Shown: in pieces, positions 2,820-51,057 of the stretch
Layout of the letters: the number at the start of each line of letters is the position of its first letter
Position numbering within the stretch: position 1 is the stretch's first letter
DNA from: an uncultured Candidatus Saccharibacteria bacterium
GTDB taxonomy: Bacteria > Patescibacteriota > Andersenbacteria > UBA10190
DNA length: 64,000 nucleotides
Direction of reading: 5' to 3'
NCBI GenBank assembly: GCA_964610055.1
Contig: CAZSUC010000002.1
Span: 18,283-82,282, forward strand
Position numbers and translations under genes: made by a program
The notes under the pieces: model-generated
Database searches by the model: none
The model's input: the letters and a program-made list of their open reading frames with translations, nothing else
What the model was told of the DNA's origin: nothing

Positions 2820-2825
2820 TTATGT

Positions 2826-3256: not shown

Positions 3257-3378
3257 GATCCGGCTCCTGCAAAAAAGGTACTGATGGCCTGAAATCCAAA
3301 ATCAGGCTGAATATTACTTTAAGACAAATGTTATTTTTGTCAATAGATAGATTAAATTAAAGATGTTAAAATTATAAT

Positions 3379-3954: not shown

Positions 3955-3962
3955 GTGAGAAA

Positions 3963-4490: not shown

Positions 4491-4866
4491 GAAGTTTATA
4501 TGGTACTTAATAGGAATAGTGGTTGTTGTATTGGTTTTTGTCTTGTTGGTAGTTAGTGCGCAAATTGGATATGGAGTACAGCAGCGCTGCAAAGCAGCAC
4601 AAGCGCAATATAATGGAGATTGTGTGGAGGCTTTAATGAACCAAGTAGCGGATGAGACTAAAACGAGTGGGAAAAATGATGCGATTTGGGCATTAGGGCA
4701 ATTGGGTGATCGGAGGGCGTTATCTTTTTTGCAACAGTATGATACGGGAGAGACTTTACCAGAACGAGAGTCGTGGGAAGAGGGAATTAGCCAGTATGAA
4801 TTACGCAAAGCAATAAGACTACTGGAAACGGGATGGAATGTGCCGGCGATTTTTTGGCGACATTAA
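4483..4866 (+). CDS. membrane-anchored HEAT/PBS-lyase repeat protein
   Basis: N-terminal TM helix; AIWALGQLGDRRALSFL HEAT-like repeat. Confidence 0.5.
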   Translation: MNKKFIWYLIGIVVVVLVFVLLVVSAQIGYGVQQRCKAAQAQYNGDCVEALMNQVADETKTSGKNDAIWALGQLGDRRALSFLQQYDTGETLPERESWEEGISQYELRKAIRLLETGWNVPAIFWRH

Positions 4867-4893: not shown

Positions 4894-5220
4894 ATGAAAG
4901 TACGGAGGGTACAAAAAATACGACCACCAATAGCAGTCGCACGAGCAGCGGAGCTAGGGTTGGAATTGCGACGAAAATTTCAGCGAGGCGGTACAATGGT
5001 TGGAGTCGCACGGGCACGAGATTTGAAGAACCGTCGAGTCTTAAGTCCGGAAACAATTAAACGGATGGTGAGTTATTTTGCTCGGCATGAAGTTGATAAA
5101 CGTGCGCCGGGTTTCGGAGAAATTGATAAACCGACAAATGGTTATATTGCCTGGTTATTATGGGGTGGAGACGCTGGTAAGAAGTGGGCGCAAAAAATTA
5201 AGCAAGAATTGACTGACTAG
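4894..5220 (+). CDS. conserved hypothetical protein
   Basis: 108-aa ORF with balanced composition; motif GYIAWLLWGG; no confident family assignment. Confidence 0.4.
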   Translation: MKVRRVQKIRPPIAVARAAELGLELRRKFQRGGTMVGVARARDLKNRRVLSPETIKRMVSYFARHEVDKRAPGFGEIDKPTNGYIAWLLWGGDAGKKWAQKIKQELTD

Positions 5221-8564: not shown

Positions 8565-9981
8565 AGGAAATGGTGTCACCGGCAACAACGGTGCGATCAA
8601 GAATAACAATATCGCCGTCGTGAAGACCATCAGTGATTTCGACGTAGCGGCCAAACATTTGCCCAAGCACGACATTGCGAAATTCAACTTGCTCACCAAC
8701 AGCGACGTATAGGACAGTTTCCTCCTGGGTTTGGGAGATAGCATCAATTGGGACGTAAGGAATAGTGCTTCCGGAATCAGCTGAACCAATGGGGACAGAA
8801 ACAGAAACGTAAGTATTGTCAGCTAGATTAGCGCAGCAATCATTTGGTAGTTCGTAAAAAACGGAATAAAGTTGGTTATTGGTTGCTTCTTGAGAGATAT
8901 AAGTAGGAAGTAAGGCTATCTCTTGACCGTTAATAGTGAAAACAGAATTTTCGGTCAGAGATACCGATTGAGCGAGGGTGGGAGAGAGGCTAACAGAGGC
9001 AACGTTATGAGGAGTAGCACTAGAAATTAAAGCTAATGGAGTACCGGCGGATACATTTTGTCCGGGGCGGACGTATATTTTTTCGACAGTGCCAGTGACA
9101 GGAGATGTTGGTGCCATAAACGAGGCATTAATCTGCGCAATTTTATAAGAGAGTGAACTTATTTCGCGATTAAGATCCAGAGCTTTTTCCTGAATGTCGA
9201 GTTGTTTTAGCGTGGTTTCTCTAGCAAGATCAGATAACTGCGCGGGCGGGTTAATCGCATTAACTTGATAGTTGGTAGTACGGATGGATGACTTTAAGCT
9301 ATTCAAAGCATTGGTATAGGTGCTTTTTAATTGCTTGGCACTTAAGATTAAGCTGTCAGAATTATCGTCACCGGATTCAAGGTCGTTTAGGTTAGAGTCG
9401 ATTTGATCTAAAATATCGGTAGTGATGGCGAGTTGATCTTCGGTTTCGGAAAGAGAGAGATTATTTAACCGACGGAGTTGATCATTATTAAGGTCGGTCT
9501 GTTGAGCGATTTCGCGTTGTTGGGCAATGATTTCTTTTTGAGTAGTGTAGGTATCATTAATGTTTGCTAGCTGAGCAGCAGCACTTTGGGCTTGTAATGA
9601 AGCGGCGTTAGCTCCTTGGTAGTTAGAAGATAGACCGATAATTTGTGTGCCGGTGGTAACTGATTGTCCGGCAGTACGGTAAATATTTTGAACGATACCG
9701 CTGGTTTGAGCGACGATAGTAACGGCGCCTTGTTTTTCAACTTTGGCTTGGAATGTCCAGCGTGGGGCTTGGCCGATATGATAAACCGAGACCGTTTTCG
9801 GGGTCGGAGATAGGGAGGTGGAGTCGGTGTGATTAAATAGATTTTCGCCTAAAATAAGGGCCAGCAGGAGAACCAAGGCAAGCAAAAAGCTAGAGAGCGG
9901 ATGAGCGTTGATATGAGACTTTAAAAACTGGCTGGATTGAGAGCAAAATTTCAAAAAGCGGCGGAATAAGGCTTGAAACAT
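8554..9981 (-). CDS. efflux periplasmic adaptor subunit (HlyD / membrane fusion protein family)
   Basis: N-terminal TM anchor, long coiled-coil, C-terminal beta-barrel typical of HlyD family; immediately upstream of RND gene. Confidence 0.7.
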   Translation of the reverse strand: MFQALFRRFLKFCSQSSQFLKSHINAHPLSSFLLALVLLLALILGENLFNHTDSTSLSPTPKTVSVYHIGQAPRWTFQAKVEKQGAVTIVAQTSGIVQNIYRTAGQSVTTGTQIIGLSSNYQGANAASLQAQSAAAQLANINDTYTTQKEIIAQQREIAQQTDLNNDQLRRLNNLSLSETEDQLAITTDILDQIDSNLNDLESGDDNSDSLILSAKQLKSTYTNALNSLKSSIRTTNYQVNAINPPAQLSDLARETTLKQLDIQEKALDLNREISSLSYKIAQINASFMAPTSPVTGTVEKIYVRPGQNVSAGTPLALISSATPHNVASVSLSPTLAQSVSLTENSVFTINGQEIALLPTYISQEATNNQLYSVFYELPNDCCANLADNTYVSVSVPIGSADSGSTIPYVPIDAISQTQEETVLYVAVGEQVEFRNVVLGQMFGRYVEITDGLHDGDIVILDRTVVAGDTISYDR

Positions 9982-10016
9982 AGAAATAGCGTGAATTAAC
10001 GATCTGAATAATTTTT

Positions 10017-10036
10017 CATTGACCGATTGGTCAATG
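10017..10036. promoter_or_regulatory. palindromic operator candidate CATTGACC-GATT-GGTCAATG
   Basis: perfect 8-bp inverted arms with 4-bp spacer in the divergent tetR / adaptor-RND intergenic region. Confidence 0.5.
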
Positions 10037-10047
10037 TTGGTTAGTAT
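10019..10047 (+). promoter_or_regulatory. sigma70-like promoter for tetR (TTGACC-N17-TAGTAT)
   Basis: -35/-10 hexamers with 17-nt spacer, -35 embedded in the palindrome; strong SD AAGGAGG upstream of ATG 10080. Confidence 0.4.
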
Positions 10048-10079
10048 GGTGCTATGTGGGATAAATTGTCAAGGAGGAT

Positions 10080-10700
10080 ATGCCAAAAACGAGGGAACAA
10101 AATTTAGCACGACGACGGGAGACCCGGGAAAAGATTCTGGTGGCAGCTTTAGATATGTTTGCTAAGCGGGGGTATCACGGGGCTTCGATTTGTATGATTG
10201 CGCGACGAGCTCGAGTTTCGAAGGGGTTAATTTATAGCTATTTTTTGAGTAAGCAAAAGATTGTGGCGGTTTTAGTTGAACGGCACAAGAAAAGAATAGA
10301 GAAGATTTTAGATATCAGTGCTGATTTGGAGCCAAAAATGCAATTAGAGCGGTTACTGGATGAATTTTGTACAATTGTGGTGCAAAATCGGCAAATGTAT
10401 CGTTTTATATTTTCTCTATTACTGCAACCAGATGTTGAAAGGTTTTTAAGTCGGCAACGTGATATGGGCGAACGATTGTCGAAAGACTTGATTCCTCGGT
10501 TACAAGCAATTGTACGAAAGGCGGGCGGAGAAATGAATCAGCATACGTTGGAACACTTGCGGGTGATGGCATACGGAGAGATTTTTGAGTATTTATGGCG
10601 AGACGATGAAGACGCATTTCGCAAATCAACACGTAATATGTTAGGAGTCATTTTGCAAAATAATATGCATGTAACAAAAAGAGTATGTGGCAAGGAATAA
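10080..10700 (+). CDS. TetR/AcrR-family transcriptional regulator
   Basis: N-terminal HTH (ILVAALDMFAKRGYHGASICMIARRARVSKGLIYSYF) typical of TetR; divergent from efflux operon. Confidence 0.85.
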   Translation: MPKTREQNLARRRETREKILVAALDMFAKRGYHGASICMIARRARVSKGLIYSYFLSKQKIVAVLVERHKKRIEKILDISADLEPKMQLERLLDEFCTIVVQNRQMYRFIFSLLLQPDVERFLSRQRDMGERLSKDLIPRLQAIVRKAGGEMNQHTLEHLRVMAYGEIFEYLWRDDEDAFRKSTRNMLGVILQNNMHVTKRVCGKE

Positions 10701-21267: not shown

Positions 21268-21834
21268 TTATTCGGTCGTAGTTTCAGTATCTTGATCGGT
21301 AGGTGGAGTACGGTCTCCGTTAGGACCACCTGGTCCGTGAGGACCGTTAGATCCTGGCCCGCCAGGACCGCCACCAGGGCCAAACGGCAAGAATTCTTCA
21401 GGAATACCGTTATCCGCTGCCCATTGCTTTAGTTCGTCCATGTGTGCAGTCATAGTTGCTTCGCGTTCTTCATCTGACATGTCTTGAAAAGAATCGCGGG
21501 ACTCTTGGAGTTCTTTTTGTTTCGCAATGATTTTATCGGCTTGTTCTTGAGTTAATGTGCCATCAGAGACAGCTTGGGTGAGACGATCCTCAAAATTTTG
21601 ATGTTGAGGACGTTCTGTGTCTTGAGGACGATGTTCATCAAAAACTTGTTGAACATCGTCAGCGCTGAGGCCAAATTTATCGGCGATTGCAGTAACAAGC
21701 TCAGACATTGGGTTGGGCCGATCGCTTTCTTCTTCATCGGCGAAAGCGGTTTGAGCGGTCTGCAAGCCAATGATGGTCGTGAGCCCGAGAGCAAGCATAG
21801 TGCCGGCTACGAGCATGGATTTGTTTGGCTTCAT
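21268..21834 (-). CDS. secreted protein with LTQEQADKI-type helical repeats and Gly/Pro-rich tail (DUF2680/YckD-like?)
   Basis: signal peptide, acidic helical region, C-terminal GPGGGPGGPGSNGPHGPGGPNG low-complexity tail. Confidence 0.5.
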   Translation of the reverse strand: MKPNKSMLVAGTMLALGLTTIIGLQTAQTAFADEEESDRPNPMSELVTAIADKFGLSADDVQQVFDEHRPQDTERPQHQNFEDRLTQAVSDGTLTQEQADKIIAKQKELQESRDSFQDMSDEEREATMTAHMDELKQWAADNGIPEEFLPFGPGGGPGGPGSNGPHGPGGPNGDRTPPTDQDTETTTE

Positions 21835-24265: not shown

Positions 24266-25486
24266 TTATTCGTAACGTAAGGCGACGATTGGTTGTAACT
24301 TAGCAGCACGTTGAGCTGGATAATAGCCAAAGACGATTCCAATGGCACTACTAACCGTGAAGGCAAGGAGAGGCCCGTAGAAGGAAATAGTGATGGGCAT
24401 GCCAAGTAGATTGCTGCCGATAATGGAAATGATAATACCAAGGATAATGCCGATAAGGCCACCGCTCACTGTCAAGACAATAGATTCAACTAAAAACTGG
24501 AGGAGAATGTCTTTGTGCTTGGCGCCGATAGCCTTGCGAATACCAATTTCTCGGGTGCGTTCAGTAATAGTAACGAGCATAATATTCATAATTCCGATAC
24601 CGCCAACGAGAAGTGAAATAGCGGCGATGCCAGAAAGTAAGTTAGTAAATGTGCTGGTAGTTTCACTGACAGTTTCAATGAGATCGGCTTGAGAACGAAT
24701 ACTGAAATCAGCATCATCGACATTAGTAAAACCATGGCGACGAAGTAAAAACCAGCCAACTTCATCCATAGTTTGATCCATGACGTCGGCGCTAGTTGCC
24801 GTGACAGAAATACTACTAACGTAATCGCTGCCAACCAAGAGTTTTTGAGCAGTAGTAATAGGAACGTAAACGCTATCGTCGGAGCTACCGAAACCACCGC
24901 CACCTTTTTCTTCAGTTAAACCAACAACTCGAAAAAGGATGCTGTTGATTTTAATGTTTTGACCAATTGGATTATCGTTTTCAAACAGACTTTCGGCGAC
25001 ATTGGGGCCCAAGACAGCGACGCGGGCAAGATCTTCTATATTTTGTTCGGTGATAAAAGAACCGGATGAAATGGTGATATTGGAAGTGGTGACATGAGAT
25101 GGCATAACGCCAGATATTTGGGCGTTAGTATTGTTTCTTCCGGCTGTGATTTGGAAATTACTGGAAACAGTAGCGCTAACGGCGGAAACGGTGGTTAAGG
25201 ATGTATTAGAAGATAAGGCTTCAACATCATCCATAGTAAGACTATCGGCTGATCCCATGGCACCACGAACACCGCTTTGACTAGAAGCCCCAGGTGAAAT
25301 TGTAAGTAAATTTGATCCAATCGATGATATCTGGTCTGTGACTGAAGTCTGCGCGCTTTGACCAAGAGAGATTAAGCTGACAACAGCGGCAATACCAATA
25401 ACAATGCCTAAAATAGCTAGGCTGGTACGTAGCATGTTAGAAAGTAAGGCATTAAAAGCAGTGGCAGTTGTTTCGCGAATATCCAT
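24266..25486 (-). CDS. ABC transporter permease, FtsX/MacB type
   Basis: TM1, large extracytoplasmic domain, then 3 TM helices with FtsX-like C-terminus; C-terminal IVALRYE. Confidence 0.8.
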   Translation of the reverse strand: MDIRETTATAFNALLSNMLRTSLAILGIVIGIAAVVSLISLGQSAQTSVTDQISSIGSNLLTISPGASSQSGVRGAMGSADSLTMDDVEALSSNTSLTTVSAVSATVSSNFQITAGRNNTNAQISGVMPSHVTTSNITISSGSFITEQNIEDLARVAVLGPNVAESLFENDNPIGQNIKINSILFRVVGLTEEKGGGGFGSSDDSVYVPITTAQKLLVGSDYVSSISVTATSADVMDQTMDEVGWFLLRRHGFTNVDDADFSIRSQADLIETVSETTSTFTNLLSGIAAISLLVGGIGIMNIMLVTITERTREIGIRKAIGAKHKDILLQFLVESIVLTVSGGLIGIILGIIISIIGSNLLGMPITISFYGPLLAFTVSSAIGIVFGYYPAQRAAKLQPIVALRYE

Positions 25487-25491
25487 AGATA

Positions 25492-26193
25492 TTATTGAGG
25501 GAAGGGGTGATTAGGGCTAATTGGTATTTGTTCTTTGTCTTCGTAGATAAGGCCGTCACGAAGAGAAATAACACGTTTAGCGTGGGCAGCGATGTCATGT
25601 TCATGTGTAACCATAACTATAGTGTGTCCTTCTTGGTTTAATTGCTGGAAGAGATGCATGATCTCATCTCCTGTTTTAGTGTCGAGGTTACCAGTTGGTT
25701 CATCGGCGAGAATAATACTAGGATCGGTGATTAAGGCGCGAGCGATAGCGACGCGTTGTTTTTGTCCACCAGAGATTTCATTTGGCATTTTTTGAGCTTC
25801 CTTGGTTAAACCAACTAGATCAAGAAGTTTTTGAGCTTTTGCGTTACGATCGTGATCGTTACAGTAGGCGAGTGGCAAGGCAACGTTTTTAAGCAAGCTC
25901 ATGCGAGCTAAGAGATTGAATGCTTGAAAAACGAAACCAATTTTGCGATTACGGATATCAGAGAGACGATCGTCAGTAAGATTTTCAACAGCCTCGCCGT
26001 CTAATTCGTAGGTACCGCTAGTCGGGATATCAAGGGCGCCTAAGATGTGCATCAAGGTTGATTTACCGGATCCGGACGGTCCCATGATAGCGACAAATTC
26101 CTTCGCTTTTATATTAATGGTAACGCCTTTTAGGGCCTGAGTCTTAGTTTCGCCGGTATCGTATGTCTTTGTAATGTTGTTGATCTTGATCAT
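25492..26193 (-). CDS. ABC transporter ATP-binding protein (MacB/LolD-type NBD)
   Basis: GPSGSGKST Walker A, LSGGQKQRVAIARAL signature, [11 protein letters not shown] Walker B. Confidence 0.9.
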   Translation of the reverse strand: MIKINNITKTYDTGETKTQALKGVTINIKAKEFVAIMGPSGSGKSTLMHILGALDIPTSGTYELDGEAVENLTDDRLSDIRNRKIGFVFQAFNLLARMSLLKNVALPLAYCNDHDRNAKAQKLLDLVGLTKEAQKMPNEISGGQKQRVAIARALITDPSIILADEPTGNLDTKTGDEIMHLFQQLNQEGHTIVMVTHEHDIAAHAKRVISLRDGLIYEDKEQIPISPNHPFPQ

Positions 26194-26201
26194 GGCGAAA
26201 T

Positions 26202-27644
26202 TTAGAAGCCTCCGCCGGGAGGACCGCCACCTCCCATGACGCTGCCCATACCGCTCATGCTTCCGCTACCAGAACGTTGGCTGCTTTCGTCGGACTCGCT
26301 GTCACTAAATGATCCTGTAATGTTACTACCACTAATAACGACTTCGTCTCCTTCGCTAAGACCGTCAGTAATTTCAATATTGAGGTCGTCGCTAGCGCCG
26401 ACAGTTACTTCGACTGTGGTAGCAACACCATCGCGCATAACAGTGACACTGGCTTGGTCGTCTTGGTATTGCACGGCATTAGTCGGGATTAAGAGAACGT
26501 CATTTTTTTGAACAGTTATAATGCTGGCGTCAACAGACATGCCTGGTCGAATAGTTTCATCTAATTGGTCAAATGTAATTTCGACATTATAAGTTGTAAC
26601 GCCGCTAGTAGTTGTACTGAGAGTATCGATATTGGAAATCACGCCAGTCGCAGTTTTATCAGATAAGGCGTCAAAAGTAAGAGTGGCGGGTTGGCCGAGC
26701 GCAATACTGGAAATATCAACTTCACTGATAGATACTTGGGCGCGTAAACTGGTCATGTCTACAATAGAGAAGAGTGTACTAGAAGAGCTGGAATCATCGC
26801 TATCGCCGTCAGAGCTGTCGTTTTTACCGACAACACTGCCTTCTACTAAGGACATATTCATAACTGTTCCGGCGACGGGGGCGGTGACAGTTTCGCTAAT
26901 CATGGCTTGGTAGCTGAGTCGAGTAGCAGTCAGACTAGCTTGGGCTGCGGTTAGCGACTGCTGAGAAATTTTAGTTGTAGTGGCGGCTGATTCAGCATTA
27001 AGTTTTGCTTGCGCTAAAGAAGCTTCCGCGGTTTTAAGGCTTTCTTGTCCGGATAGTTTGGCGGTCTTGAGTTCAATTTCAGCGCTTTCAGTTGTACGTT
27101 CAGCGGAGACTGTTTCTAGGTCGGTGTCGGCAGATTCTTGTGTCATGGCAGCGCTAATAACGCCCTTATCGGCATCAATAATACTTTTGTTAACAGCAAT
27201 TTTAGCTTGATCGTAGGCTAATTGACTGGCTTCAAGGTTAGTTTGTTTGATTTGCTCGTTTTTTTGACTTTCAGTTAATGTTTGTTCAGCGGAAGTAACG
27301 GCTTTTTGCGCGGATAGGAGAGAGGCATAAGCTTGCGCTAATTCTTCATCGGTTGATAGTGATTTTAGAGCAACAAGAGTTTGATCAGCGGTAACGGTTT
27401 CGCCATTTTCGACATATATTTTTTCGATCCGACTTGCACCGCTAGTAGTGACATCAGAAGATATTTTAGCGATAACAGAACCGCTGCCGCTAACTGACTC
27501 GACAATTGTGCCGCGCTCGACTGTTGTAGTGCTGGTTGTGACTACCGTTTCAGTGGTGCGGAAAAAGAACCACCAAACTGCTACTCCAGCGAGCAGGAGA
27601 ATAATAGTGATAATGAACCACGGTTGACGATAAGGGATTTTCAT
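26202..27644 (-). CDS. HlyD-family periplasmic adaptor (MacA-like) with Gly/Ser-rich C-terminal tail
   Basis: N-terminal TM anchor, coiled-coil, beta-barrel; C-terminal low-complexity SGSGSMSGMGSVMGGGGPPGGGF. Confidence 0.75.
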   Translation of the reverse strand: MKIPYRQPWFIITIILLLAGVAVWWFFFRTTETVVTTSTTTVERGTIVESVSGSGSVIAKISSDVTTSGASRIEKIYVENGETVTADQTLVALKSLSTDEELAQAYASLLSAQKAVTSAEQTLTESQKNEQIKQTNLEASQLAYDQAKIAVNKSIIDADKGVISAAMTQESADTDLETVSAERTTESAEIELKTAKLSGQESLKTAEASLAQAKLNAESAATTTKISQQSLTAAQASLTATRLSYQAMISETVTAPVAGTVMNMSLVEGSVVGKNDSSDGDSDDSSSSSTLFSIVDMTSLRAQVSISEVDISSIALGQPATLTFDALSDKTATGVISNIDTLSTTTSGVTTYNVEITFDQLDETIRPGMSVDASIITVQKNDVLLIPTNAVQYQDDQASVTVMRDGVATTVEVTVGASDDLNIEITDGLSEGDEVVISGSNITGSFSDSESDESSQRSGSGSMSGMGSVMGGGGPPGGGF

Positions 27645-27798: not shown

Positions 27799-29244
27799 GT
27801 GTTAACGACCAAAGTAAATGAAATAGACTTGGGCGGATCCGATGCACCGGTGAAGTTGTTTTTGATTCACGGATATACCGGGAGTCCAACTGACTTTAAT
27901 CAGTTGCCAGATTTTTTACATGACCAGTATGGAGTTAGGGTGCGTGTACCTTTACTGCCGGGGCATGGTACTGAAGTGAATGATTTAGATAACTATAACT
28001 ACGAGGATTTTATTCAAAAGGTTGAAAAGGAGTTTGCTCAAGAACGTCAAAAAGGAGGAAAAATATTGGTTGGCGGAGTGTCTTTTGGAGCGCTAGTGGC
28101 TTTACGTTTAGCAGCGAAGTATCCGGTTGATGGTGTAGTCAATATTAGTATTCCGTTTAGTTTAAAAATGCCTTTTGGAATGCCCGGCATAAAATGGTTG
28201 CGTCTGATAAAGAAATACTGGAGAAAAAAAGTGAAATCAGATGAAATAGGGCTGCGGCGCGATTCCTTCCATTACGATTATATGCATGTAAATGGTCTGG
28301 GAATTGTAAAGCAAGCTAAGCGTGAGGTGAAAGATAATTTACGTGGAGTTACGTGTCCGATTATAACAATTCATTCAAATCACGATCCGATTGGAAGTGT
28401 GCGAGGAGTGCATAAATTACAGAAGAAAATGGCTAAAGATCATCAGGTTGTGATGTATGATAATCCTAATCACAATATTTTTTTTAGTAATAAGCATACC
28501 GATGCTTACCAAAAGATTGGTGATTTTGTGCAAGACACAATAAAATCACGATCAGTGAAAACAAAGCACAAAGTTGCGGCAATTGTACCAGCTTATAACG
28601 AAGCGGATCGCATTAAGCCAGTATTGGAAACTTTGATTCGGACTGACTTAATTAATGAGGTGATGGTAGTGGATGATGGATCAACGGATAAAACAAGTGA
28701 AATTGCGCGGGCTGTGCCAGGAGTAAAAGTGATTACTAATAAGGAGAATAAGGGGAAGGCAGCCTCTTTGCAGCTGGCAATTGATCAAACGAAAGCAGAC
28801 GTTTTATTTTTTTGTGACGCAGACTTAGAAGAATTAACACCAGAGATCGTAACGGAGATTATAAACCCAGTAGTGTTAGAGCAACGAGATATGTTTATTG
28901 GGGTGCGCAATAATGTTACGCAAAAAGCGTTGACTTTATTTGCGCTGAATTCAGGTGAGAGAGCGTTGCGACGAGAAGTATGGGAAGAGATGCCGGATAT
29001 TTTTAAATATCGTTATCGATTAGAAGTAGGTTTAAACGCGACTGCTCGATGGCGTAAGAATGGTTATGGATGGAAAAAGTTTCCATACTATCAGACATTT
29101 AAAGAACGTAAATATGGGTTTGTCAAAGGCACTATTTTGCGCTGGTGGATGAATTTAGATGTGTTGTATGCGTATGCAGTGGTTGTGGGAAGGCGCGTTT
29201 TGGGGCGACGGGGATTGGTGGCGGAGAAAAAGACTGGCATTTAA
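27799..29244 (+). CDS. bifunctional alpha/beta-hydrolase (esterase-like) and family-2 glycosyltransferase fusion protein
   Basis: GTG start; N-terminal HGYTGSP ... GVSFGA (GxSxG) hydrolase fold; C-terminal AAIVPAYNEADRI ... VVDDGSTDKT ... CDADL GT2 (DPM1-like) motifs. Confidence 0.7.
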   Translation: MLTTKVNEIDLGGSDAPVKLFLIHGYTGSPTDFNQLPDFLHDQYGVRVRVPLLPGHGTEVNDLDNYNYEDFIQKVEKEFAQERQKGGKILVGGVSFGALVALRLAAKYPVDGVVNISIPFSLKMPFGMPGIKWLRLIKKYWRKKVKSDEIGLRRDSFHYDYMHVNGLGIVKQAKREVKDNLRGVTCPIITIHSNHDPIGSVRGVHKLQKKMAKDHQVVMYDNPNHNIFFSNKHTDAYQKIGDFVQDTIKSRSVKTKHKVAAIVPAYNEADRIKPVLETLIRTDLINEVMVVDDGSTDKTSEIARAVPGVKVITNKENKGKAASLQLAIDQTKADVLFFCDADLEELTPEIVTEIINPVVLEQRDMFIGVRNNVTQKALTLFALNSGERALRREVWEEMPDIFKYRYRLEVGLNATARWRKNGYGWKKFPYYQTFKERKYGFVKGTILRWWMNLDVLYAYAVVVGRRVLGRRGLVAEKKTGI

Positions 29245-29269: not shown

Positions 29270-29662
29270 ATGAAAGGATACATAGCAAACTTAGAACAAG
29301 AAACTTTAGAAAATAACGACTATCGTCGCGTATTGTATACGGGACGGTATAGTCAATTAGTAGTCATGAGTTTAGAGCCGGGTCAGGAGATAGGGAACGA
29401 GCAACATGGCCTTGATCAATTTATTCGAATTGAACAAGGAAAAGCGAAGGTTGTTTTAGGCAATGGAGAATTGGAGCAAGAGGTGCAGGATGATTGGGCA
29501 TTTATTATTCCAGCGGGAACTTGGCATAACGTGATCAATACGGGAGAAACTCAATTAAAGTTATACACTGTTTATTCTCCCCCTGAACATCGACATGACG
29601 TGGTGCAACCAACGAAAGCAGATGAAAAGGAAGAACATTTTGACGGTCAGACAACTGAATAA
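29270..29662 (+). CDS. cupin-domain protein
   Basis: start moved to ATG 29270 (after previous stop); motif G..EQHGLDQFIRIEQG...IIPAGTWHNVIN typical of small cupins. Confidence 0.6.
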   Translation: MKGYIANLEQETLENNDYRRVLYTGRYSQLVVMSLEPGQEIGNEQHGLDQFIRIEQGKAKVVLGNGELEQEVQDDWAFIIPAGTWHNVINTGETQLKLYTVYSPPEHRHDVVQPTKADEKEEHFDGQTTE

Positions 29663-30061
29663 TCAGTGGTGTCCACAGCGGCAGCCTTTGGGAGTGATAT
29701 AGCCGTCGAAGTATTCGGATCCGTAATGATAAGTTAGTTCAGTGCCAGCGGGGATGTCGGTAATTGCGTAAACGAAAAGACGGCGACCGTCTTGTTCGAC
29801 TTCACAGTTAGGTTGGCATGAGTGATTGAGGTAACGAGCGATGTTTTGACGGTGGCTACCATCAATGGTGCGATGGTCGTCTAAAGCAAATAAATATTTT
29901 CCGCCGGCTTTTTCAGCGGCAGCGTTGGATAAAATTGGTCCATAGTATTCAATAACAAAATCATCTTTTTTGATAGGGCTTTGCGAGAAAAGGCCTAAGC
30001 CGGATAGTCCGCGTTTAACTACGAGCTGGTGTTTGGATGGCCGAGGGTAACGATAAGGCAT
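29663..30061 (-). CDS. SET-domain protein (putative protein-lysine methyltransferase)
   Basis: RYLNHSCQPNC and ELTYHYG SET signatures plus C-terminal CRCGHH post-SET-like Cys cluster; 132 aa. Confidence 0.7.
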   Translation of the reverse strand: MPYRYPRPSKHQLVVKRGLSGLGLFSQSPIKKDDFVIEYYGPILSNAAAEKAGGKYLFALDDHRTIDGSHRQNIARYLNHSCQPNCEVEQDGRRLFVYAITDIPAGTELTYHYGSEYFDGYITPKGCRCGHH

Positions 30062-30095
30062 AGTTTAAGATAGTAAATTAAAGTATGATTATAAT

Positions 30096-30575
30096 ATGAA
30101 AACGGAAAAGAGCCAGGGGTCGATAACTCTGATGGTGTTAGTCATGTTGTTGGTGTTTGGATTAATTTTTGGAACGATAGCGGCTTTGATTAGTCGCCAG
30201 GCCAACCAGATTTCTGATCAGGAGGAAAATGAGCAGGTCGCTGGGTTGGCTGATGCTGGGGTTCAGTATGCATTCTGGTTGCTAAAAATATCCACTCAAG
30301 GAGGCGGTATAACACCGGAAAGTTTGTGTACTAATCCTCCATCTGGGGCAAGTGAGCATATGATTTTAGATGAACAAGGGGTGGAGCTAGGATATTTTGA
30401 TTTAGATTTTGTGTCGTGTAGTGATGAATATGTGCAAGTTAATTCCTGGGGGTTTGATGAGAGTAAGAGTGATATCTGTCAATTGATTGTGGCAGAGTTT
30501 GAGAAAACTCAAGAAGGTTCATTTGTGAGAACAGGCTGGAATGCGAAATCAGGAGTTGACTGTCCGAATAACTAA
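30096..30575 (+). CDS. type IV pilus minor pilin-like / PilX N-terminal-like protein
   Basis: N-terminus KSQGSITLMVLVMLLVFGLIFGTIAAL resembles PilX_N hydrophobic segment; remainder unassigned. Confidence 0.4.
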   Translation: MKTEKSQGSITLMVLVMLLVFGLIFGTIAALISRQANQISDQEENEQVAGLADAGVQYAFWLLKISTQGGGITPESLCTNPPSGASEHMILDEQGVELGYFDLDFVSCSDEYVQVNSWGFDESKSDICQLIVAEFEKTQEGSFVRTGWNAKSGVDCPNN

Positions 30576-30578: not shown

Positions 30579-31826
30579 TTATTCGTAGCGTAAGGCTTCG
30601 ATTGGATCTTTACGGGCAGCAGCGCGAGCCGGGTAAATGCCAAAAACTAAGCCGACGAGAGTAGCGGTGCCAACTCCGAGTAAAATGGCGTTAAGTGGGA
30701 AACTGGTTGGCCAATCGAGTCCAAATTGAGTACGAACGACATAAGCCACTAACCAAGAAATGCCAAGAGCAAGAGAAGTGCCTAGAATGCCACCGGAAGC
30801 GGTCAGGATGGTAGCTTCTAAGAGGAATTGGCGCATGATGTCGTTGTTTGTAGCACCAACAGTTTTGCGAAGACCAATTTCACGAGTACGTTCCGTAACT
30901 GAAACCAGCATAATATTCATAATACCGACGCCGGCAACTAACAGTGAAATAGCGGCAATTGAGACTAAGAAAATAGTTAGGATATTTGTGATAGTACTGA
31001 CGCGCGTAGCAATATCAGCTTGAGTCATGACTGAAAAATCGTCTTTAGTGGTATCAGTAATATTATGTTCTTCGCGCAAAGTTAAGCGCACGTCTTGGGC
31101 AACCTGTTCGGCATTAGCATCATCATTGGTTTGAATTAAAACTTCGTTGAAATAATCAATTCCCATGATATCTTTTTGGGCAGTGGAATAGGGAATTAAA
31201 GCAAGTTTATCAACATTTAAAAATGATACTTGGCCAGTTTTAGGAAAAGTACCGACAACTTTTAAACGAGTGTTTTTAATTGTGACAAATTGTCCAATTG
31301 CGTCAATGTTACCGAAAAGATCTTGTTTGACTTGATAACCAAGGACAACTACTTTAGATCGTTGTTTGATGTCGTCTTGAGTGAATAAAAAACCTTGGTC
31401 GGGATATAGATCGAGCATAGTAGCTAAAGCTTCAGCATCGTACCCGATTGTTAGAGGACGGGCGATGGCATCGCGATAGGACATGCTGCCGGAAACAATA
31501 ACTTCAGGAATAATGTTTTGAACGTTCGGTACGTTAGCGGGGCGACTAAGGGCATCAATATCGGAGCTGGTGATGGAGTCGGAGAAAAGAGCGCTAGTAA
31601 AATCGGATGGGCCTTCGGCTTGACGTCCGGGTTCAATCATAACGACATTACCACCAAAGGCGCGAACTTCATTGAGAATCACTTCTCGTGAACTTTGGCC
31701 TAAGGCGACGACTAAGACGATGGCGAGGACACCAATCACAATGCCGAGAATAGTGAGAAGAGAGCGAACTAAATTATCGCGAAGGGCGCGGAAAGAAATT
31801 GTAATTGTGTCGCGCAGCTGAATCAT
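30579..31826 (-). CDS. ABC transporter permease, FtsX/MacB type (second copy)
   Basis: same architecture as 24266..25486; C-terminal PIEALRYE. Confidence 0.8.
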   Translation of the reverse strand: MIQLRDTITISFRALRDNLVRSLLTILGIVIGVLAIVLVVALGQSSREVILNEVRAFGGNVVMIEPGRQAEGPSDFTSALFSDSITSSDIDALSRPANVPNVQNIIPEVIVSGSMSYRDAIARPLTIGYDAEALATMLDLYPDQGFLFTQDDIKQRSKVVVLGYQVKQDLFGNIDAIGQFVTIKNTRLKVVGTFPKTGQVSFLNVDKLALIPYSTAQKDIMGIDYFNEVLIQTNDDANAEQVAQDVRLTLREEHNITDTTKDDFSVMTQADIATRVSTITNILTIFLVSIAAISLLVAGVGIMNIMLVSVTERTREIGLRKTVGATNNDIMRQFLLEATILTASGGILGTSLALGISWLVAYVVRTQFGLDWPTSFPLNAILLGVGTATLVGLVFGIYPARAAARKDPIEALRYE

Positions 31827-32537
31827 TTATTTGTGATAAGTGTTATTAGGATTGAATTTATTAGGAGAATCACTAGCGATACGTCCATCGCGCATTTCAA
31901 TAATGCGTTGAGCGTATTGAGCGGTGGGGGTTTCATGAGTAATTAGAATAATGGTGTGACCTTGCTGGTGAAGACGTGCAATTGTATCCATAACAATAGC
32001 GCCGGTGCGTGAGTCGAGATTTCCCGTTGGTTCATCGGCTAAGATTAGGCGAGGTTCATTAATAAGAGCACGGGCAATGGCCGCTCGTTGCTTTTCGCCA
32101 CCGGAGAGTTGGGTGGGGCGATGATGGAGTCGATGAGACATTTCAACTTGAGCTAGGGCGGCTTGAGCGCGACTAACATATTCGCGTGAACGAACAGAAG
32201 AATATTGCAAAGGTAAAATAACGTTTTCTAAAACGGTTGAATGAGGAAGTAAATGAAATGATTGGAAAACGAAGCCAATGCGTTGGTTACGAATTAGCGC
32301 TAGTTCTTGGTCGGTTAAGGTAGAGGTGTCTTGATTGTCGAACAAGTATTGTCCAGAAGTGGGTCGACTGAGGAGGCCGAGAATTTGAAGAAGAGTGGAT
32401 TTACCGGAGCCACTAGCACCCATGATAGAAACAAATTCACCGGCTTCAATGTGAAAAGTGGCATGGTCAAGAGCGGTAACAGCAGCTTCATCCATGCCGT
32501 AAACCTTGCGCAGGGCAGAGCATTGAATGAGGGGCAT
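31827..32537 (-). CDS. ABC transporter ATP-binding protein (second copy)
   Basis: [35 protein letters not shown]. Confidence 0.9.
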
Positions 32538-32545
32538 AGACTGAA

Positions 32546-33823
32546 TTAAGGAGTGTTAACGTCTGGATCAATTACCAGAGGGTCGTTTTCGTTTAATCCA
32601 CTAGTAACTTCAGCTAAACCATTGGAACCATATAGGCCGATAGTAACTGAGTGAGAAACGGGCACGTTATTTTCTAAGACATAAACGTAAGTACCGGTAT
32701 TATCAGTGTGAATAGCGCGACGGGGGATGGCGAGGGTGTGGGAATGTTCAGCAACATGGACTTCAATGTTAGCGGTAAACCCAGCTTTAAGCTCAGAAGG
32801 TTGATTAGGAAGTTTAAGTTTTACTTCGTAAGTTGGAACTCCTTCGGTAAGAGTGGCTGAAGGAGAAATATAGGTAATTTCTGCAGAATATTCTTGATTA
32901 ATAGGCAGGGCATCAAAAGTAATAGTGGCGGATTGATTAGCTGCTAGGCTAGCAGCATCAGTTTCCGGAACCATGGCACTGATTTCCAGATTGGTTAAAT
33001 CAGCAAAAGTCATGACAGGGACAGTGGCAGTGATAATTTCGCCAATTTCGTTATCAATAGCTGTGACAGTGCCGTCAAAAGGAGCGCGAAGAATACTTTT
33101 AGATAATTTAACTTCAGCGAGAGAACGAGCGGCTGATAAGCTAGATAAACCCGAGGTATTACTAGCAGCTTGAAGAGTGGCTTGGTATTGAGCAGCGGCA
33201 AGATCAACGGCATGAGAAGCAGTTTCATTGGATTGAGAAATTGTTTTTTCGGATTGAGCTAGGGTCTCTTGGGCGGCATGATAGGCGGATTCAGCAGTGA
33301 GAACGGCAGCGTAAGCGGTTTTAGCAGTGCTAGAATATTCGTCGTATTCTCGCAAAATTTGTAAATACAATTCTTTTTGTTGATCAAGAGCCTTTTTGGT
33401 ATCTCGAACTGTCTGACGTTTAGTTTCCAGCGCTTGAGCATTCGTGGTTTTAGTATTATTCCAATCTTCTTCAGCTTGGCGCCAGGCTAACAAAGCTTGT
33501 TCGGTGGTGCTGGCTTGATTGGCATTGGCTTGCGCGAGTTCAAGTTGAGCGGCCTGATCATCGAGGTAAGCCAAGACGGTACCAGCAGTAACAGTTTGTC
33601 CGGCGGCAACTGGTAAAGCGGTGAGGGTGCCACCATACTCGAATCCTAGAGCAACTTCATTGATAGGCTGAAGGCGACCAGTAAAACTAATATCTTGGGT
33701 GACAGTCTCATAGCTAACAAGGCTAGTTTCAATGGTTTGATCGGAAGATTGACCGCGACTCATGAAAAAGACGACAAGACCGATAAGAACGCAGGCACCA
33801 ATAATCCACCAAAGTTTTTTCAT
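32546..33823 (-). CDS. HlyD-family periplasmic adaptor (second copy)
   Basis: N-terminal TM anchor, coiled-coil, beta-barrel; paralog of 26202..27644. Confidence 0.75.
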   Translation of the reverse strand: MKKLWWIIGACVLIGLVVFFMSRGQSSDQTIETSLVSYETVTQDISFTGRLQPINEVALGFEYGGTLTALPVAAGQTVTAGTVLAYLDDQAAQLELAQANANQASTTEQALLAWRQAEEDWNNTKTTNAQALETKRQTVRDTKKALDQQKELYLQILREYDEYSSTAKTAYAAVLTAESAYHAAQETLAQSEKTISQSNETASHAVDLAAAQYQATLQAASNTSGLSSLSAARSLAEVKLSKSILRAPFDGTVTAIDNEIGEIITATVPVMTFADLTNLEISAMVPETDAASLAANQSATITFDALPINQEYSAEITYISPSATLTEGVPTYEVKLKLPNQPSELKAGFTANIEVHVAEHSHTLAIPRRAIHTDNTGTYVYVLENNVPVSHSVTIGLYGSNGLAEVTSGLNENDPLVIDPDVNTP

Positions 33824-33918: not shown

Positions 33919-34629
33919 ATGAAAATTAGAAAATCAGGGATAATTGGAATCATGATAGTGGTGGTTGTCGGAGTGAGTGTCAGTTTATTGATGAGAGAAA
34001 AAGAAGAGCTGGATTTACAAGAGGAAAGAGGGGTATTACCTGTAGCGTCTTCCTTGGTAAAAGTGGTAGGGCAAACAGTGGTCCCGAGGCCGCAAATTTT
34101 ATTTGTTGGTCCGCGAGAAAATATTCCGGAAGATGCACCGACAGCTTATGGTTTTTGGTCGTTTGCGATACCAGTAACCAATGTCTTATCTCGTTCCGGA
34201 CAGCCCCTAATTGGAGAATTTGAGTGGTTGCGAGAGAATGGCTGGCAAAGTGTAATTGACCTTAGAACGGATGGGGAGCGTGACGAGGTGGGTGATGACG
34301 CGAAAATTTCGGGATTTAATGAATTAGGATTTACGTATAAATATATGCCAATAATTGATGGTCATCCGCCAACGGAAGAACAGGCGATGGAATTTTTACA
34401 ATTTGTCACAAATCCGGTCAATCAGCCGGTGCATATTCATTGTCGAGGGGGGATTGGTAGGACGGGAACATTGGTTGCCTTGTATCGTTACGCTATACAG
34501 AGTTGGCCGATGGAACAGGCAATTGAGGAGTCACGGGCTTTTCAGGGAGGAGTGAGCACGTTGCAAGAACCATGGCTATTGGAATGGGCACAGACGCATG
34601 CGCCAGGTGAATATGGGGCAAGTAAATAA
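33919..34629 (+). CDS. membrane-anchored protein tyrosine / dual-specificity phosphatase
   Basis: N-terminal TM helix; active-site HIHCRGGIGRTG (CX5R P-loop). Confidence 0.65.
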   Translation: MKIRKSGIIGIMIVVVVGVSVSLLMREKEELDLQEERGVLPVASSLVKVVGQTVVPRPQILFVGPRENIPEDAPTAYGFWSFAIPVTNVLSRSGQPLIGEFEWLRENGWQSVIDLRTDGERDEVGDDAKISGFNELGFTYKYMPIIDGHPPTEEQAMEFLQFVTNPVNQPVHIHCRGGIGRTGTLVALYRYAIQSWPMEQAIEESRAFQGGVSTLQEPWLLEWAQTHAPGEYGASK

Positions 34630-41561: not shown

Positions 41562-41960
41562 ATGTCACGCGGTCTTGAAGAGATGATGCGTACTTTGGAA
41601 GACGTTGCGCAGATGATGGCTCGAGTGACTAGGCGGCCGCCTGGGTTTTGTCGGGATCAGCTGCTGGCAACTTGCGACGGGATCTCTGGTAAACAGCTGC
41701 ATGACTGTTTGATGGTGGTGATGCGTCTCAACAGGCGTCTGTTCTTCGTTTCGTCGATTCAGGACATGCGGCGAGCGCAACAGGTTGGCGCTCTGATCTG
41801 TCGGTGGGGGGGCTTGGATGTGAAGACATTCTTGCGTCAGGTTGTCGAACATCCGGAGTACATGGCTGCGGTGATTGAGCTTCCTTCTTTGAGGAAGGTG
41901 AACAAGCGGCCTTGCAGAAAGAAGAGGTCGGCGAAGGGTGCACCAATGAGGATGCACTGA
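41562..41960 (+). CDS. hypothetical basic protein (GC-rich cassette ORF B)
   Basis: 132 aa; SD GGAGGAA 5 nt upstream of ATG; helical, Arg/Lys-rich C-terminus; antisense ORF is low-complexity His/Pro, so plus strand favoured. Confidence 0.45.
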   Translation: MSRGLEEMMRTLEDVAQMMARVTRRPPGFCRDQLLATCDGISGKQLHDCLMVVMRLNRRLFFVSSIQDMRRAQQVGALICRWGGLDVKTFLRQVVEHPEYMAAVIELPSLRKVNKRPCRKKRSAKGAPMRMH

Positions 41961-46854: not shown

Positions 46855-47379
46855 ATGAAAGGAAAATTAGTGGTAGGGGCGATAGTGTTATTAGTAGCGA
46901 TAGCTGTTGGCGTGGGTTGGTGGTGGAAACTAAATCAAGGTCCGACAGATGAAGAATTGAGTGTGTTGTTTCAAGAAGAAGGCGAAAGTGAAGACGTGAA
47001 AGTCAGTGACAATGGTAATTATTTGCACGAGGCGCCGGCGGATTTTCCGGAGAGTACAGAAGGATCAGAAGTGGTTGAGGGAACAATAATACCGAATAGT
47101 GAAGTGGAAGTGATTAATCAGAATACGAGTATGACAGAAGTATCAATTAGTGAATTAGGGTTTACTCCAGAAGAGGTGACGGTTGCGCAAGGAGAAAAAG
47201 TGAAATTTGTAAATAACGGCCAAGGTATGCATGAACCAATGCAGACTGATCTGGACGGTTTTGTCGCTGGGATTATGCAAACCGGAGATAGTTATACTTT
47301 TACTTGGGAGATGTCAGGAGAATGGCTGGTAACAGATAAATATAATGATGAAGCGAAATTGAGAGTCGTGGTAGAATAG
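46855..47379 (+). CDS. membrane-anchored protein with cupredoxin-like C-terminal domain
   Basis: N-terminal TM; C-terminal VTVAQGEKVKFVNNGQGMHEP...GDSYTFTW beta-sandwich-like pattern, no Cu ligand Cys. Confidence 0.35.
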   Translation: MKGKLVVGAIVLLVAIAVGVGWWWKLNQGPTDEELSVLFQEEGESEDVKVSDNGNYLHEAPADFPESTEGSEVVEGTIIPNSEVEVINQNTSMTEVSISELGFTPEEVTVAQGEKVKFVNNGQGMHEPMQTDLDGFVAGIMQTGDSYTFTWEMSGEWLVTDKYNDEAKLRVVVE

Positions 47380-49170: not shown

Positions 49171-51057
49171 ATGGCAGTGAATCTATTAAAAGTTGGAGAC
49201 AGGTTGATTGGCTCGGGGAAGCCGACGTTTGTAATTGCTGAGGCGGGAATTAACCATAATGGCAGCGTGGAGCGAGCCAAGGATTTAATTGACGCTGCAG
49301 CGACGGCGGGGGCGGACGCGGTTAAATTTCAGAAACGATCACTAAAAGATGTCTATCAAAAAGAAATTTTAGACAATCCCAATAAAGCAGAGCAGCGTTA
49401 TCAGGTTTATATTCCTTTATTAAAGGAGTTTGAGTTTTCAGACGAAGTGTTTTTGGAACTGGAAAAATATGCTCAGCAAAAAGGGATTATGTTTTTGGTG
49501 AATCCATGGGATAAACCCAGTGCGGACAAGATAGAGACGCAACTACATGTTCCAGTGTATAAAGTTGGGTCACCGGATTTAACAAACGATGAACTTCTGG
49601 AATATTTAGCTGCGTTTGGAAAACCAATGATTTTATCGACCGGCATGAGTAGTGCTGACGAGATTGATCATGCGGTAACATTATTGAAGCGCAAAAGAAT
49701 TGATTTTGCGCTTTTGCATTGTAATAGCACTTACCCGGCTCCGTTTGATGAAATTAATTTAAGATTTATGGAAGAATTGGCACGGTACGGGGTGCCGGTG
49801 GGGTATTCGGGGCATGAACGAGGGATAGCTGTTTCAATTGGCGCAGTAGCGCGAGGAGCTTGTATTATTGAGCGACATCTGACGGTTGATAAGGATTTAG
49901 AAGGACCGGATCATAAGGCCAGTCTAACACCGGAAGAATTTCAACAAATGGTTATGGGGATACATGAGGTGGAGCGAGCGGTTGGAGTAAGAGAGAAGAA
50001 ACTGTCTCGCGCGGAAGTAATGAATCGGGAATTATTAGGAAAAAGTATTGTCGCAGCGAAGTTTATTCCGGATGGAGCGATCATTACGCGAGCAATGTTA
50101 ACAACTCGTTCGCCGGCGAAGGGATTATCTCCACAGATGATGGATAAGATTGTGGGTTCGGCGGCACAGCGAGATATTTTTGAAGGAGATGCTTTAACTG
50201 AAGACGATTTAACCGGAACAAATTTTGAGCAAGAGTTTGAGACAGGAGGGATCAAGTGGCAATGGGGCCCGGTGGTGAGATTTAGTGATTTTGAACAGTA
50301 TCTGCGCTATCAGCCAAATTTATTTGAGTTCCATTTAAGTGATAAGGATTTAGAAGAGGACTTGCCGCAAGGAAAATGGAAGCAGCAATTAGTAGTGCAT
50401 GCTCCGGAATATATGAAACGAACATATCTAAATCCAGCAGCAGTTAATAGAGATGAGCGCAAAATAGCGATTAAGACTTTACAAAAGACAATTGAATTAG
50501 CGCGGAAATTAGGAGAGTCATTTGAGGGAGTGCCTAAGATTGTGATTCATCCAGGCGGGATTACTTTAAAACCGTATGATAACAAAAAGGAGCTGCTGGA
50601 TTTATTTAAAGATACTTTAAGTAAGTTGCCGAGCGATGGAGTCGAAATTTTACCGGAAAATTTGCCGCCACGAGCATGGGTCTTCGGAGGAGAGTGGGTA
50701 ACAAATATTTGGATGTTATCCGATGAGATTGAGAATTTTCTACAGGAGACAGGGTATAAGATGACTTTAGATACTTCTCATTTGGCTTTAGCTTGTAATG
50801 TTTATGGTCGGTCATTAAAAGATGAAATTAAAAGATTAAAACCATATATAAGGCACCTGCATGTGTCTGATGCGTCTGGTGTTGGTGATGAAGGTTTGCA
50901 GATTGGACAAGGAGACGTAAATTGGCAAGAAATTTTACAAATACTGGATGATTATAAAGAGACGATGGTGCCAGAGATTTGGCAAGGGCATTTGCATGGC
51001 GGAAGAGGATTTTTGCAAGCAATGCAACATTTAAAGACGTGGTGGAAGAAAGATTAA
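49171..51057 (+). CDS. NeuB-family nonulosonic acid (sialic/pseudaminic/legionaminic acid-type) synthase fused to xylose-isomerase-like TIM-barrel domain
   Basis: N-terminal FVIAEAGINHNGS ... AGADAVKFQ NeuB core and SAF domain (aa ~290-360), then ~270-aa C-terminal domain with VVHAPEY, IVIHPGG, LDTSHL, HLHVSD motifs of sugar-phosphate isomerase/epimerase TIM barrels. Confidence 0.75.
   Translation: MAVNLLKVGDRLIGSGKPTFVIAEAGINHNGSVERAKDLIDAAATAGADAVKFQKRSLKDVYQKEILDNPNKAEQRYQVYIPLLKEFEFSDEVFLELEKYAQQKGIMFLVNPWDKPSADKIETQLHVPVYKVGSPDLTNDELLEYLAAFGKPMILSTGMSSADEIDHAVTLLKRKRIDFALLHCNSTYPAPFDEINLRFMEELARYGVPVGYSGHERGIAVSIGAVARGACIIERHLTVDKDLEGPDHKASLTPEEFQQMVMGIHEVERAVGVREKKLSRAEVMNRELLGKSIVAAKFIPDGAIITRAMLTTRSPAKGLSPQMMDKIVGSAAQRDIFEGDALTEDDLTGTNFEQEFETGGIKWQWGPVVRFSDFEQYLRYQPNLFEFHLSDKDLEEDLPQGKWKQQLVVHAPEYMKRTYLNPAAVNRDERKIAIKTLQKTIELARKLGESFEGVPKIVIHPGGITLKPYDNKKELLDLFKDTLSKLPSDGVEILPENLPPRAWVFGGEWVTNIWMLSDEIENFLQETGYKMTLDTSHLALACNVYGRSLKDEIKRLKPYIRHLHVSDASGVGDEGLQIGQGDVNWQEILQILDDYKETMVPEIWQGHLHGGRGFLQAMQHLKTWWKKD

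Follow-up and report, generated by a model that had tools for sequence, protein, structure and literature searches.

A small gene for a SET-domain protein lies within 64,000 nucleotides of contig CAZSUC010000002.1 (assembly GCA_964610055.1, positions 18,283 to 82,282), which belong to an uncultured bacterium of the Andersenbacteria within the Patescibacteria. This whole stretch is referred to as the window and positions are counted from its first nucleotide. By every sequence and fold criterion tested, the gene encodes a member of the SET family. Its place is among the small stand-alone SET proteins of prokaryotes, a large family that was recognised before. We predict that the product is an active, minimal, stand-alone SET protein-lysine N-methyltransferase, with a probability of about 0.8. 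The gene is described as follows:

29663..30061, reverse strand: stand-alone SET-domain protein-lysine methyltransferase (predicted), 132 amino acids, recognised with Pfam, phmmer against the Protein Data Bank (PDB), a family alignment, AlphaFold2 and Foldseek.

The open reading frame (ORF) starts with ATG, stops with TGA and encodes the 132 amino acids MPYRYPRPSKHQLVVKRGLSGLGLFSQSPIKKDDFVIEYYGPILSNAAAEKAGGKYLFALDDHRTIDGSHRQNIARYLNHSCQPNCEVEQDGRRLFVYAITDIPAGTELTYHYGSEYFDGYITPKGCRCGHH. The start codon is supported by the conservation of the N-terminus (MPYRYP or MAYKKP) in homologues. An initial annotation, made from the letters alone, had pointed to the motifs NHSCQPN, ELTYHYG and a C-terminal CRCGHH in a 132-residue frame. 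All were found as described, at residues 79–85, 108–114 and 127–132. The classical SET motifs are present as G21-L-G23 (GxG), Y39-Y-G41 (YxG), N79-H-S-C82-Q-P-N85 and E108-L-T-Y111-H-Y113. The protein consists of a SET core and a shortened post-SET motif, C127-x-C129-x-x-H132, with which the chain ends. Only a very short insert separates the N-terminal half of the SET core from the C-terminal half, and a pre-SET/AWS domain is absent. A signal peptide, a membrane segment, a hydrophobic N-terminus and a recognisable secretion signal were not found in the sequence. Because of the lack of a hydrophobic N-terminus, a grand average of hydropathy (GRAVY) of −0.59 and an isoelectric point of 8.3, the protein is probably soluble and cytoplasmic.

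The SET identity proposed in the initial annotation was confirmed by profile and structure. The Pfam SET model PF00856 matched over its full length, model positions 1–105 of 105 covering residues 21–114, with 86.2 bits against a gathering score of 22.4 (E 2.5e-24). A phmmer search of all PDB chains matched 138 sequences. The best of these were the catalytic domains of NSD2, ASH1L, NSD1, MLL1-4 and SET1 with E values of about 1e-17. An AlphaFold2 model was built from an alignment of 48 relatives and reached a mean predicted local distance difference test (pLDDT) value of 84.7 and a predicted template modelling (pTM) score of 0.77. Superposition with Foldseek on the PDB placed SET domains on all top ranks, including MLL1, NSD1, G9a/GLP, ASH1L, SETD2, EZH2 and SET8, with E values of 2e-9 to 2e-8 and query template modelling scores (TMq) of 0.62–0.84. 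For the SET domains of MLL1, NSD1 and G9a, TMq was 0.66–0.84. The top-ranked structures (MLL1, MLL3, MLL4, NSD1, G9a and ASH1L) share 32–36% identical amino acids with the window protein. The overall SET fold expected by the initial annotation was thus recovered in the model.

Relatives were searched among 5.8 billion proteins as matches sharing exact words with the query. This yielded 65 proteins, nearly all SET-only and 123–175 amino acids long. The family alignment comprises 48 of them, 38–67% identical to the window protein. Invariant positions in the alignment are G21, G23, F25, Y39, G41, F58, G68, N79, H80, C82, N85, Y113, C127 and C129. They span all four classical SET motifs (GxG, YxG, NHSCxPN and the final tyrosine of ELxYDY) and the C-terminal cysteine pair. 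Since the SAM (S-adenosylmethionine)-binding and catalytic positions are invariant in the 48 relatives, the protein looks catalytically competent.

The C-terminal cysteines are part of a family motif, CxCxx[C/H], that is conserved across the subfamily as a shortened form of the canonical post-SET CxCx4C. The window protein does not match the canonical spacing: C127, C129 and H132 form CxCx2[C/H], and the protein terminates there. In the PDB alignment, its CRCG is aligned to the CRCG of the NSD2 post-SET domain. The position three residues after C129 is a cysteine in 27 and a histidine in 16 of the 48 sequences. The window protein and its closest relatives have the histidine and stop at this point (CRCGHH), and more distant members have the cysteine. 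That Cys and His replace each other here, while Cys82 of NHSC is invariant, is the pattern expected of metal ligands. The motif and Cys82 probably form one four-ligand zinc site. A description of the shortened ending was not found in the literature searched; it is a minor variation and a family trait. A further feature of the subfamily is a Lys/Arg-rich C-terminal tail of 3–35 residues with almost no acidic residues. It is present in 19 of the 48 relatives, including P0008, P0011, P0013, P0016, P0025, P0039, P0040, P0052, P0058, P0060, P0062 and P0064. These tails may be nucleic-acid-binding appendages.

The subfamily is widespread. One genome per species of the GTDB was scanned with the pattern NxARY[IL]NHSC, and matching stretches were checked by tblastn. 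At least 600 species genomes carry the pattern, and all 600 listed stretches were confirmed. The best 80 of these at least 600 loci are mostly from metagenome-assembled genomes (MAGs) of Patescibacteria: Andersenbacteria, Peribacteria, Paceibacterota, Kaiser-, Nomura-, Yonath-, Wolfe-, Uhr- and Doudnabacteria and 'Saccharibacteria'. A second block is formed by Acidobacteriota (Pyrinomonadaceae, Blastocatellia and Chloracidobacterium), and a few further MAGs are labelled Proteobacteria. The nearest relatives are proteins of 132 amino acids from Andersenbacteria and Peribacteria MAGs with 62–67% identity. The best match that carries a taxon name is from Ca. Andersenbacteria. The enolase of the window is suggestive of the same placement: its matches have about 65–70% identity, and five of the nine named ones are Ca. 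Andersenbacteria. A phmmer search of 1.84 billion cluster representatives gave 9441 matches at E ≤ 1e-3, 1360 at ≤ 1e-10 and 15 at ≤ 1e-30. Within the top 150, the representatives are mostly 110–200 amino acids long. The best match, P0068 with 264 amino acids, has two matched stretches and is apparently a tandem double-SET protein. Carriage on mobile elements was considered and rejected. The search of sequenced phages gave no match to the subfamily. Giant-virus contigs held distant relatives only (27–34% identity), and relatives on megaplasmids of Burkholderiales (Paraburkholderia and Burkholderia) were also distant, with 37–45% identity among the best 15 records. Most of the latter are named 'SET domain-containing protein-lysine N-methyltransferase' by the Prokaryotic Genome Annotation Pipeline (PGAP).

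Excerpts of a 2014 review put the number of bacterial genomes with SET genes at more than 500 and argue for a bacterial origin (Alvarez-Venegas, PMC3980110). Together with the at least 600 species genomes carrying the subfamily motif, this shows that the statement 'uncommon in bacteria' in the initial annotation was too strong. The same excerpts cite Aravind et al. 2011 (as given in PMC3980110) for the proposal that SET enzymes originated in prokaryotes as modifiers of chromatin. In the review excerpts, the endogenous prokaryotic SET substrates named are only MC1-alpha, for Go1-SET, and Hc1, for cpnSET. Other characterised bacterial SET proteins are described in excerpts of a 2022 review as secreted effectors, or nucleomodulins, acting on host histones. 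The substrates listed in the excerpts of the two reviews are histones and archaeal or chlamydial chromatin proteins; pilins are not among them. A literature search for SET proteins in Patescibacteria or the candidate phyla radiation (CPR) found no relevant paper.

The gene neighbourhood varies between genomes. Six contexts obtained by exact protein look-up were all different, with neighbours such as a PD-(D/E)XK protein and ParB, EamA and a glycosyl hydrolase, FtsK-gamma and ParB, a ClpB-like protein, or an SMC-like ATPase and RRF. For 86 non-redundant loci, ORFs were called and clustered by all-against-all BLASTP. The SET cluster was recovered in 71 of the 86 loci by ORF call, and no neighbour cluster occurred in more than 15. 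A universally conserved neighbour was absent among the 86 loci, and only two clade-specific blocks were present. In the first, found in about 12 loci, SET is preceded by genes for a putative TyrRS, a putative epimerase and an RlmI-like class I methyltransferase and followed by RuvC and RuvB; these gene names are our reading of the sequences, without a basis in hidden Markov models (HMMs). In the second block, found in 6–7 loci, SET is preceded by acetate kinase and phosphoketolase. The SET gene stands alone, without a conserved operon partner, and synteny is only clade-specific. In a Paceibacteria-type clade (L020, L024, L028–L031, L033, L035, L044, L046, L053 and L075), SET lies directly downstream, on the same strand, of the RlmI-like class I SAM methyltransferase of 286 amino acids, and RuvC and RuvB follow a few genes on. 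From this arrangement, a two-methyltransferase operon is possible.

In the predicted enzyme, the motifs GxG, YxG, NHSCxPN and ELxYxY would bind SAM and form the lysine channel, with Tyr113 as the putative catalytic residue. These roles are assigned because the same motifs have them in characterised SET enzymes. The CxCxx[C/H] motif and Cys82 would coordinate a single zinc ion and seal the active site in the manner of a post-SET domain. Methyl groups would pass from SAM to the epsilon-amino group or groups of lysine in one or a few endogenous proteins. Tyr111 occupies what we take to be the position of MLL1 Tyr3942 in ELTYDY, the Phe/Tyr switch. It would favour mono- or dimethylation over trimethylation, a prediction of low weight. 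The most likely substrates would be abundant, basic, nucleic-acid-associated proteins of the nucleoid or of the ribosome and translation. Such an endogenous, nucleic-acid-associated substrate is tentatively ranked first, at somewhat less than an even chance within the probability of an active SET methyltransferase. The ranking follows from two precedents described in the review excerpts, Go1-SET with MC1-alpha and cpnSET with Hc1, and from the basic tails of the relatives. An endogenous substrate is placed before a host target because Acidobacteriota share the subfamily and a secretion signal is absent.

Several observations weigh against parts of this prediction. ELxYDY reads ELTYHY, with a change from Asp to His, in the window protein and in only some of its closer relatives. 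The last approximately 20 residues of the AlphaFold2 model have pLDDT values of only 58–67, so the geometry of the zinc site is of low confidence. The substrate class is suggested by precedent and by the tails of relatives, whereas the window protein lacks a basic tail. A consistent hint of a substrate does not emerge from the gene neighbourhoods, and neither clade block suggests one.

In the window, the order of genes is MacB-type efflux genes, an ORF of 159 amino acids, SET, a cupin and a fusion of a hydrolase and a family-2 glycosyltransferase (GT2). On the side of its start codon, SET is adjoined by the following features:

30062..30095, no strand: AT-rich divergent intergenic spacer of 34 nt, read from the sequence.
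30096..30575, forward strand: ORFan of 159 amino acids with an N-terminal membrane helix and an acidic domain with four cysteines, tested and rejected as a SET partner.

The 159-residue frame starts 34 nt from the SET start codon. The initial annotation regarded it as a PilX-like minor pilin encoded divergently from SET. The divergent arrangement holds; the identity as a pilin is not supported by HMMs or by a prepilin motif. Pfam gave no family at E ≤ 0.01. At E ≤ 10, only DUF7289 (E 0.031), SecE and DUF2897 appeared, and PilX_N and N_methyl were absent. The sole NCBIfam match, GspG TIGR01710, was below threshold with 16.3 bits against a cutoff of 88.85 (E 0.007). The N-terminus, MKTEKSQGSITLMVLVMLLV..., lacks the prepilin site G|[FMLIV][ST]L[IVL]E: it reads SQG-SITLMV, without Glu5. 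Neither strict (PROSITE-like) nor relaxed prepilin patterns matched any window ORF of at least 50 codons. Among the 5.8 billion proteins, the 159-residue protein matched only itself and is thus an ORFan. With tblastn, nothing was found in 84 other SET loci (E ≤ 1) or in 80 cupin loci (E ≤ 1e-4). A frame of 159 amino acids near SET in L003 has the same length as the window neighbour and was rejected as unrelated (E 4.6). A single-sequence AlphaFold2 model of the window neighbour shows a helix at residues 7–49 followed by strands at low confidence (pLDDT 51.7, pTM 0.35), by which a pilin-like shape is neither shown nor excluded. The domain with the cysteines presumably lies outside the cell. About 50 window ORFs scanned against Pfam included no pilus ATPase, platform protein, secretin, prepilin peptidase or pilin.

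The spacer contains the palindromic ATTATAAT immediately 5' of the ATG of the ORFan. This placement suggests a leaderless or very short-leader transcript of the ORFan. An obvious Shine-Dalgarno sequence was absent for both SET and the 159-residue frame. A consensus promoter scan found no scoring site in the spacer, and the scan for promoters and terminators around the SET locus gave nothing above shuffled expectation.

On the side of the SET stop codon are the remaining genes of this group:

29270..29662, forward strand: cupin of 130 amino acids (Cupin_2, E 1.9e-13), convergent with SET without a gap, probably not a functional partner.
27799–29244, forward strand: fusion of an N-terminal alpha/beta-hydrolase and a C-terminal family-2 glycosyltransferase, 481 amino acids (Pfam).

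The cupin gene ends at the base before the SET stop codon, which agrees with the tail-to-tail arrangement given in the initial annotation. Homologues with 57–67% identity immediately precede SET in the same orientation in L055, L059, L060 and L073, and one in L007 is 4 kb away from SET. The four loci share further genes and are counted as one clade because of this wider synteny. The cupin of L059 and L073 is preceded by a stand-alone GT2 gene; in the window, the GT2 before the cupin is part of the hydrolase fusion. The cupin family has a mean column identity of 81% in six sequences and an invariant C-terminal tail, EHEEHFDGxTTE. It is widespread, with at least 221 confirmed metagenomic stretches. 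From the cupin side, synteny was studied in 80 loci (L090–L169), 71 of which have a downstream flank of at least 450 nt. SET follows directly downstream of the cupin in 4 of the 71 metagenomic loci (L129, L134, L141 and L154), where both genes are on the same strand, and is absent in 67. From the SET side, 79 of 84 loci have no cupin. A general partnership of cupin and SET, examined from both sides, was rejected as confined to one clade. We read the adjacency as a remnant of synteny or, at most, as a clade-limited association.

The neighbours offer two other explanations for the function of the SET protein. It could methylate the adjacent membrane or surface protein, or pilins generally, as part of a divergent functional pair. 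The two genes are separated by only 34 nt, the hydrophobic helix followed by beta-strands in the low-confidence model resembles the shape of a pilin, the N-terminus has the sub-threshold GspG match, and four lysines (64, 124, 137 and 151) lie beyond the membrane helix. Against these points, the neighbour is an ORFan, is missing from all 84 other SET loci and has no pilin HMM match and no prepilin motif. Pilus machinery was not found among the window ORFs scanned, and pilins are absent from the substrate lists in the review excerpts. The topology is also a poor fit, as SET has no export signal and the neighbour is membrane-anchored with a presumably external cysteine domain. With the subfamily in at least 600 species and the 159-residue protein in one lineage, the conserved function of SET is not due to this partner. 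HMMs, motif and homology searches, model, synteny over 84 loci and window annotation were all negative or inconclusive, and the pilin link was rejected. The pilin or surface-protein methyltransferase that the initial annotation had derived from this neighbour is the least probable of the explanations considered. A partnership with the cupin has a slightly better standing and is still highly improbable. Here, SET would be a methyl-lysine writer and the cupin-fold protein an oxygenase or eraser, or SET would belong to a GT2-cupin sugar-modification module. The cupin abuts SET in the window, precedes it on the same strand in the loci named above, and the order GT2, cupin, SET recurs in L059, L073 and the window. 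The co-directional cases, however, represent one clade with shared wider synteny, and the counts from both sides show the two genes mostly apart. In the window, the genes converge and co-transcription is impossible. Known JmjC demethylases are also much larger than a single-domain cupin of 130 amino acids.

Two further explanations concern the SET protein itself. As an effector, it would be delivered into a host cell and methylate host chromatin or nucleoid proteins, like RomA/LegAS4, NUE, BtSET and BaSET. This would fit the episymbiotic lifestyle of Patescibacteria, a group thought to live attached to host cells. It would also fit the characterised bacterial SET proteins in the excerpts of the 2022 review, which are all secreted nucleomodulins. 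The window protein has neither a signal peptide nor a recognisable secretion signal, and the annotation of the window ORFs revealed no secretion-system gene nearby. Identity with the LegAS4/AnkI type was rejected: the equivalog model NF043024 reached 22 bits against a cutoff of 550 and matched the SET core only. The subfamily is also common in MAGs of Pyrinomonadaceae and Blastocatellia (Acidobacteriota), which are free-living. The hosts identified for Patescibacteria are, to our knowledge, prokaryotic and lack histones H3 and H4. An effector role is improbable on these grounds. A catalytically dead SET fold serving as a binding module is very improbable. The change from ELxYDY to ELTYHY and the truncation of the post-SET motif could indicate a loss of activity. 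The invariance of SAM-binding and catalytic positions across the 48 sequences argues for purifying selection on the active site, and the histidine variant is common to several closer relatives. An active methyltransferase with an endogenous substrate is preferred over these explanations.

A wider reading of the methyltransferase is doubtful. Patescibacteria and some Acidobacteriota might methylate their own nucleoid-associated or ribosomal proteins via SET in a manner resembling chromatin marks, and the small cupin would possibly act as a modifier or eraser in some lineages. The SET family is abundant in the Patescibacteria, a major radiation that is uncultured. Their genomes are tiny, and any gene retained in them probably matters. 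Endogenous substrates are known for few SET enzymes of prokaryotes; the review excerpts name only Go1-SET and cpnSET. The identity of the substrate would tell whether Patescibacteria use lysine methylation of nucleoid or translation proteins as a layer of regulation. It would also bear on the proposed origin of SET enzymes as prokaryotic chromatin modifiers. The single locus in the window adds one more member to the family and gives no special handle on the substrate. The pilin hypothesis can be dropped.

The other window ORFs identified by Pfam include efflux systems, enolase, pyruvate kinase, PPDK, BipA, QueA, Lgt, an AddA-like helicase-nuclease, DsbA/VKOR and a two-component system. Two paralogous three-gene modules of MacB-type efflux systems have the same orientation (24266–27644 and 30579–33823, both on the reverse strand). 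Each consists of a YknX-like adaptor, an ABC ATPase and a MacB/FtsX permease, and the two permeases are 37% identical. The modules flank a four-gene island of hydrolase-GT2, cupin, SET and ORFan. An AcrB-type resistance-nodulation-division (RND) pump with an HlyD-like adaptor and a TetR regulator is encoded at 5217–10700. For a Patescibacteria genome, the amount of efflux machinery spanning the envelope is large. Two further features were described:

33919–34629, forward strand: dual-specificity or tyrosine phosphatase-like protein (PTP-NADK, Tc-R-P and Y_phosphatase2 in Pfam), 236 amino acids, with an N-terminal membrane helix.
49171–51057, forward strand: fusion of NeuB (sialic or nonulosonic acid synthase), SAF and a xylose-isomerase-like TIM barrel (AP_endonuc_2), 628 amino acids.

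Genes for a class I methyltransferase, VKOR and DsbA are located 3' of the NeuB fusion. Several ORFs of 120–190 amino acids had no Pfam match at E ≤ 1e-5 (2346–4866, 21268–21834, 41562–41960, 46855–47379 and 56534–56899). The Rfam scan of the window matched no RNA family.

In comparison with known systems, the window protein shares the SET catalytic domain with the bacterial proteins RomA/LegAS4 of Legionella, NUE, BtSET and BaSET. Unlike the nucleomodulins of the RomA/LegAS4 type, it has no ankyrin repeats, nuclear localisation signal (NLS) or secretion signal. The minimal SET-only architecture and the size are similar to viral vSET (PBCV-1 A612L, 119 amino acids) and giant-virus SET proteins. 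We take vSET to lack the post-SET zinc motif and to act as a dimer on H3K27. Go1-SET of Methanosarcina mazei, acting on MC1-alpha, and cpnSET of Chlamydia, acting on Hc1, are described in the review excerpts as prokaryotic SET enzymes with an endogenous DNA-associated substrate; they are the functional precedent for the substrate class predicted for the window protein. The best matches in sequence and structure are the eukaryotic SET2/NSD/ASH1L and MLL/SET1 enzymes (E about 1e-17, 32–36% identity, TMq 0.66–0.79). Unlike these, the window protein has no AWS/pre-SET domain, a very short I-SET insert and no partner or reader domains. Its post-SET motif is cut from CxCx4C to CxCx2[C/H] and closes the protein. 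The small stand-alone prokaryotic SET proteins have, like the window protein, a single SET domain of approximately 130–170 amino acids, the same motifs and no pre-SET domain. There is no essential difference to this group; the window lineage ends in a histidine, without the tail carried by 19 of the 48 relatives.

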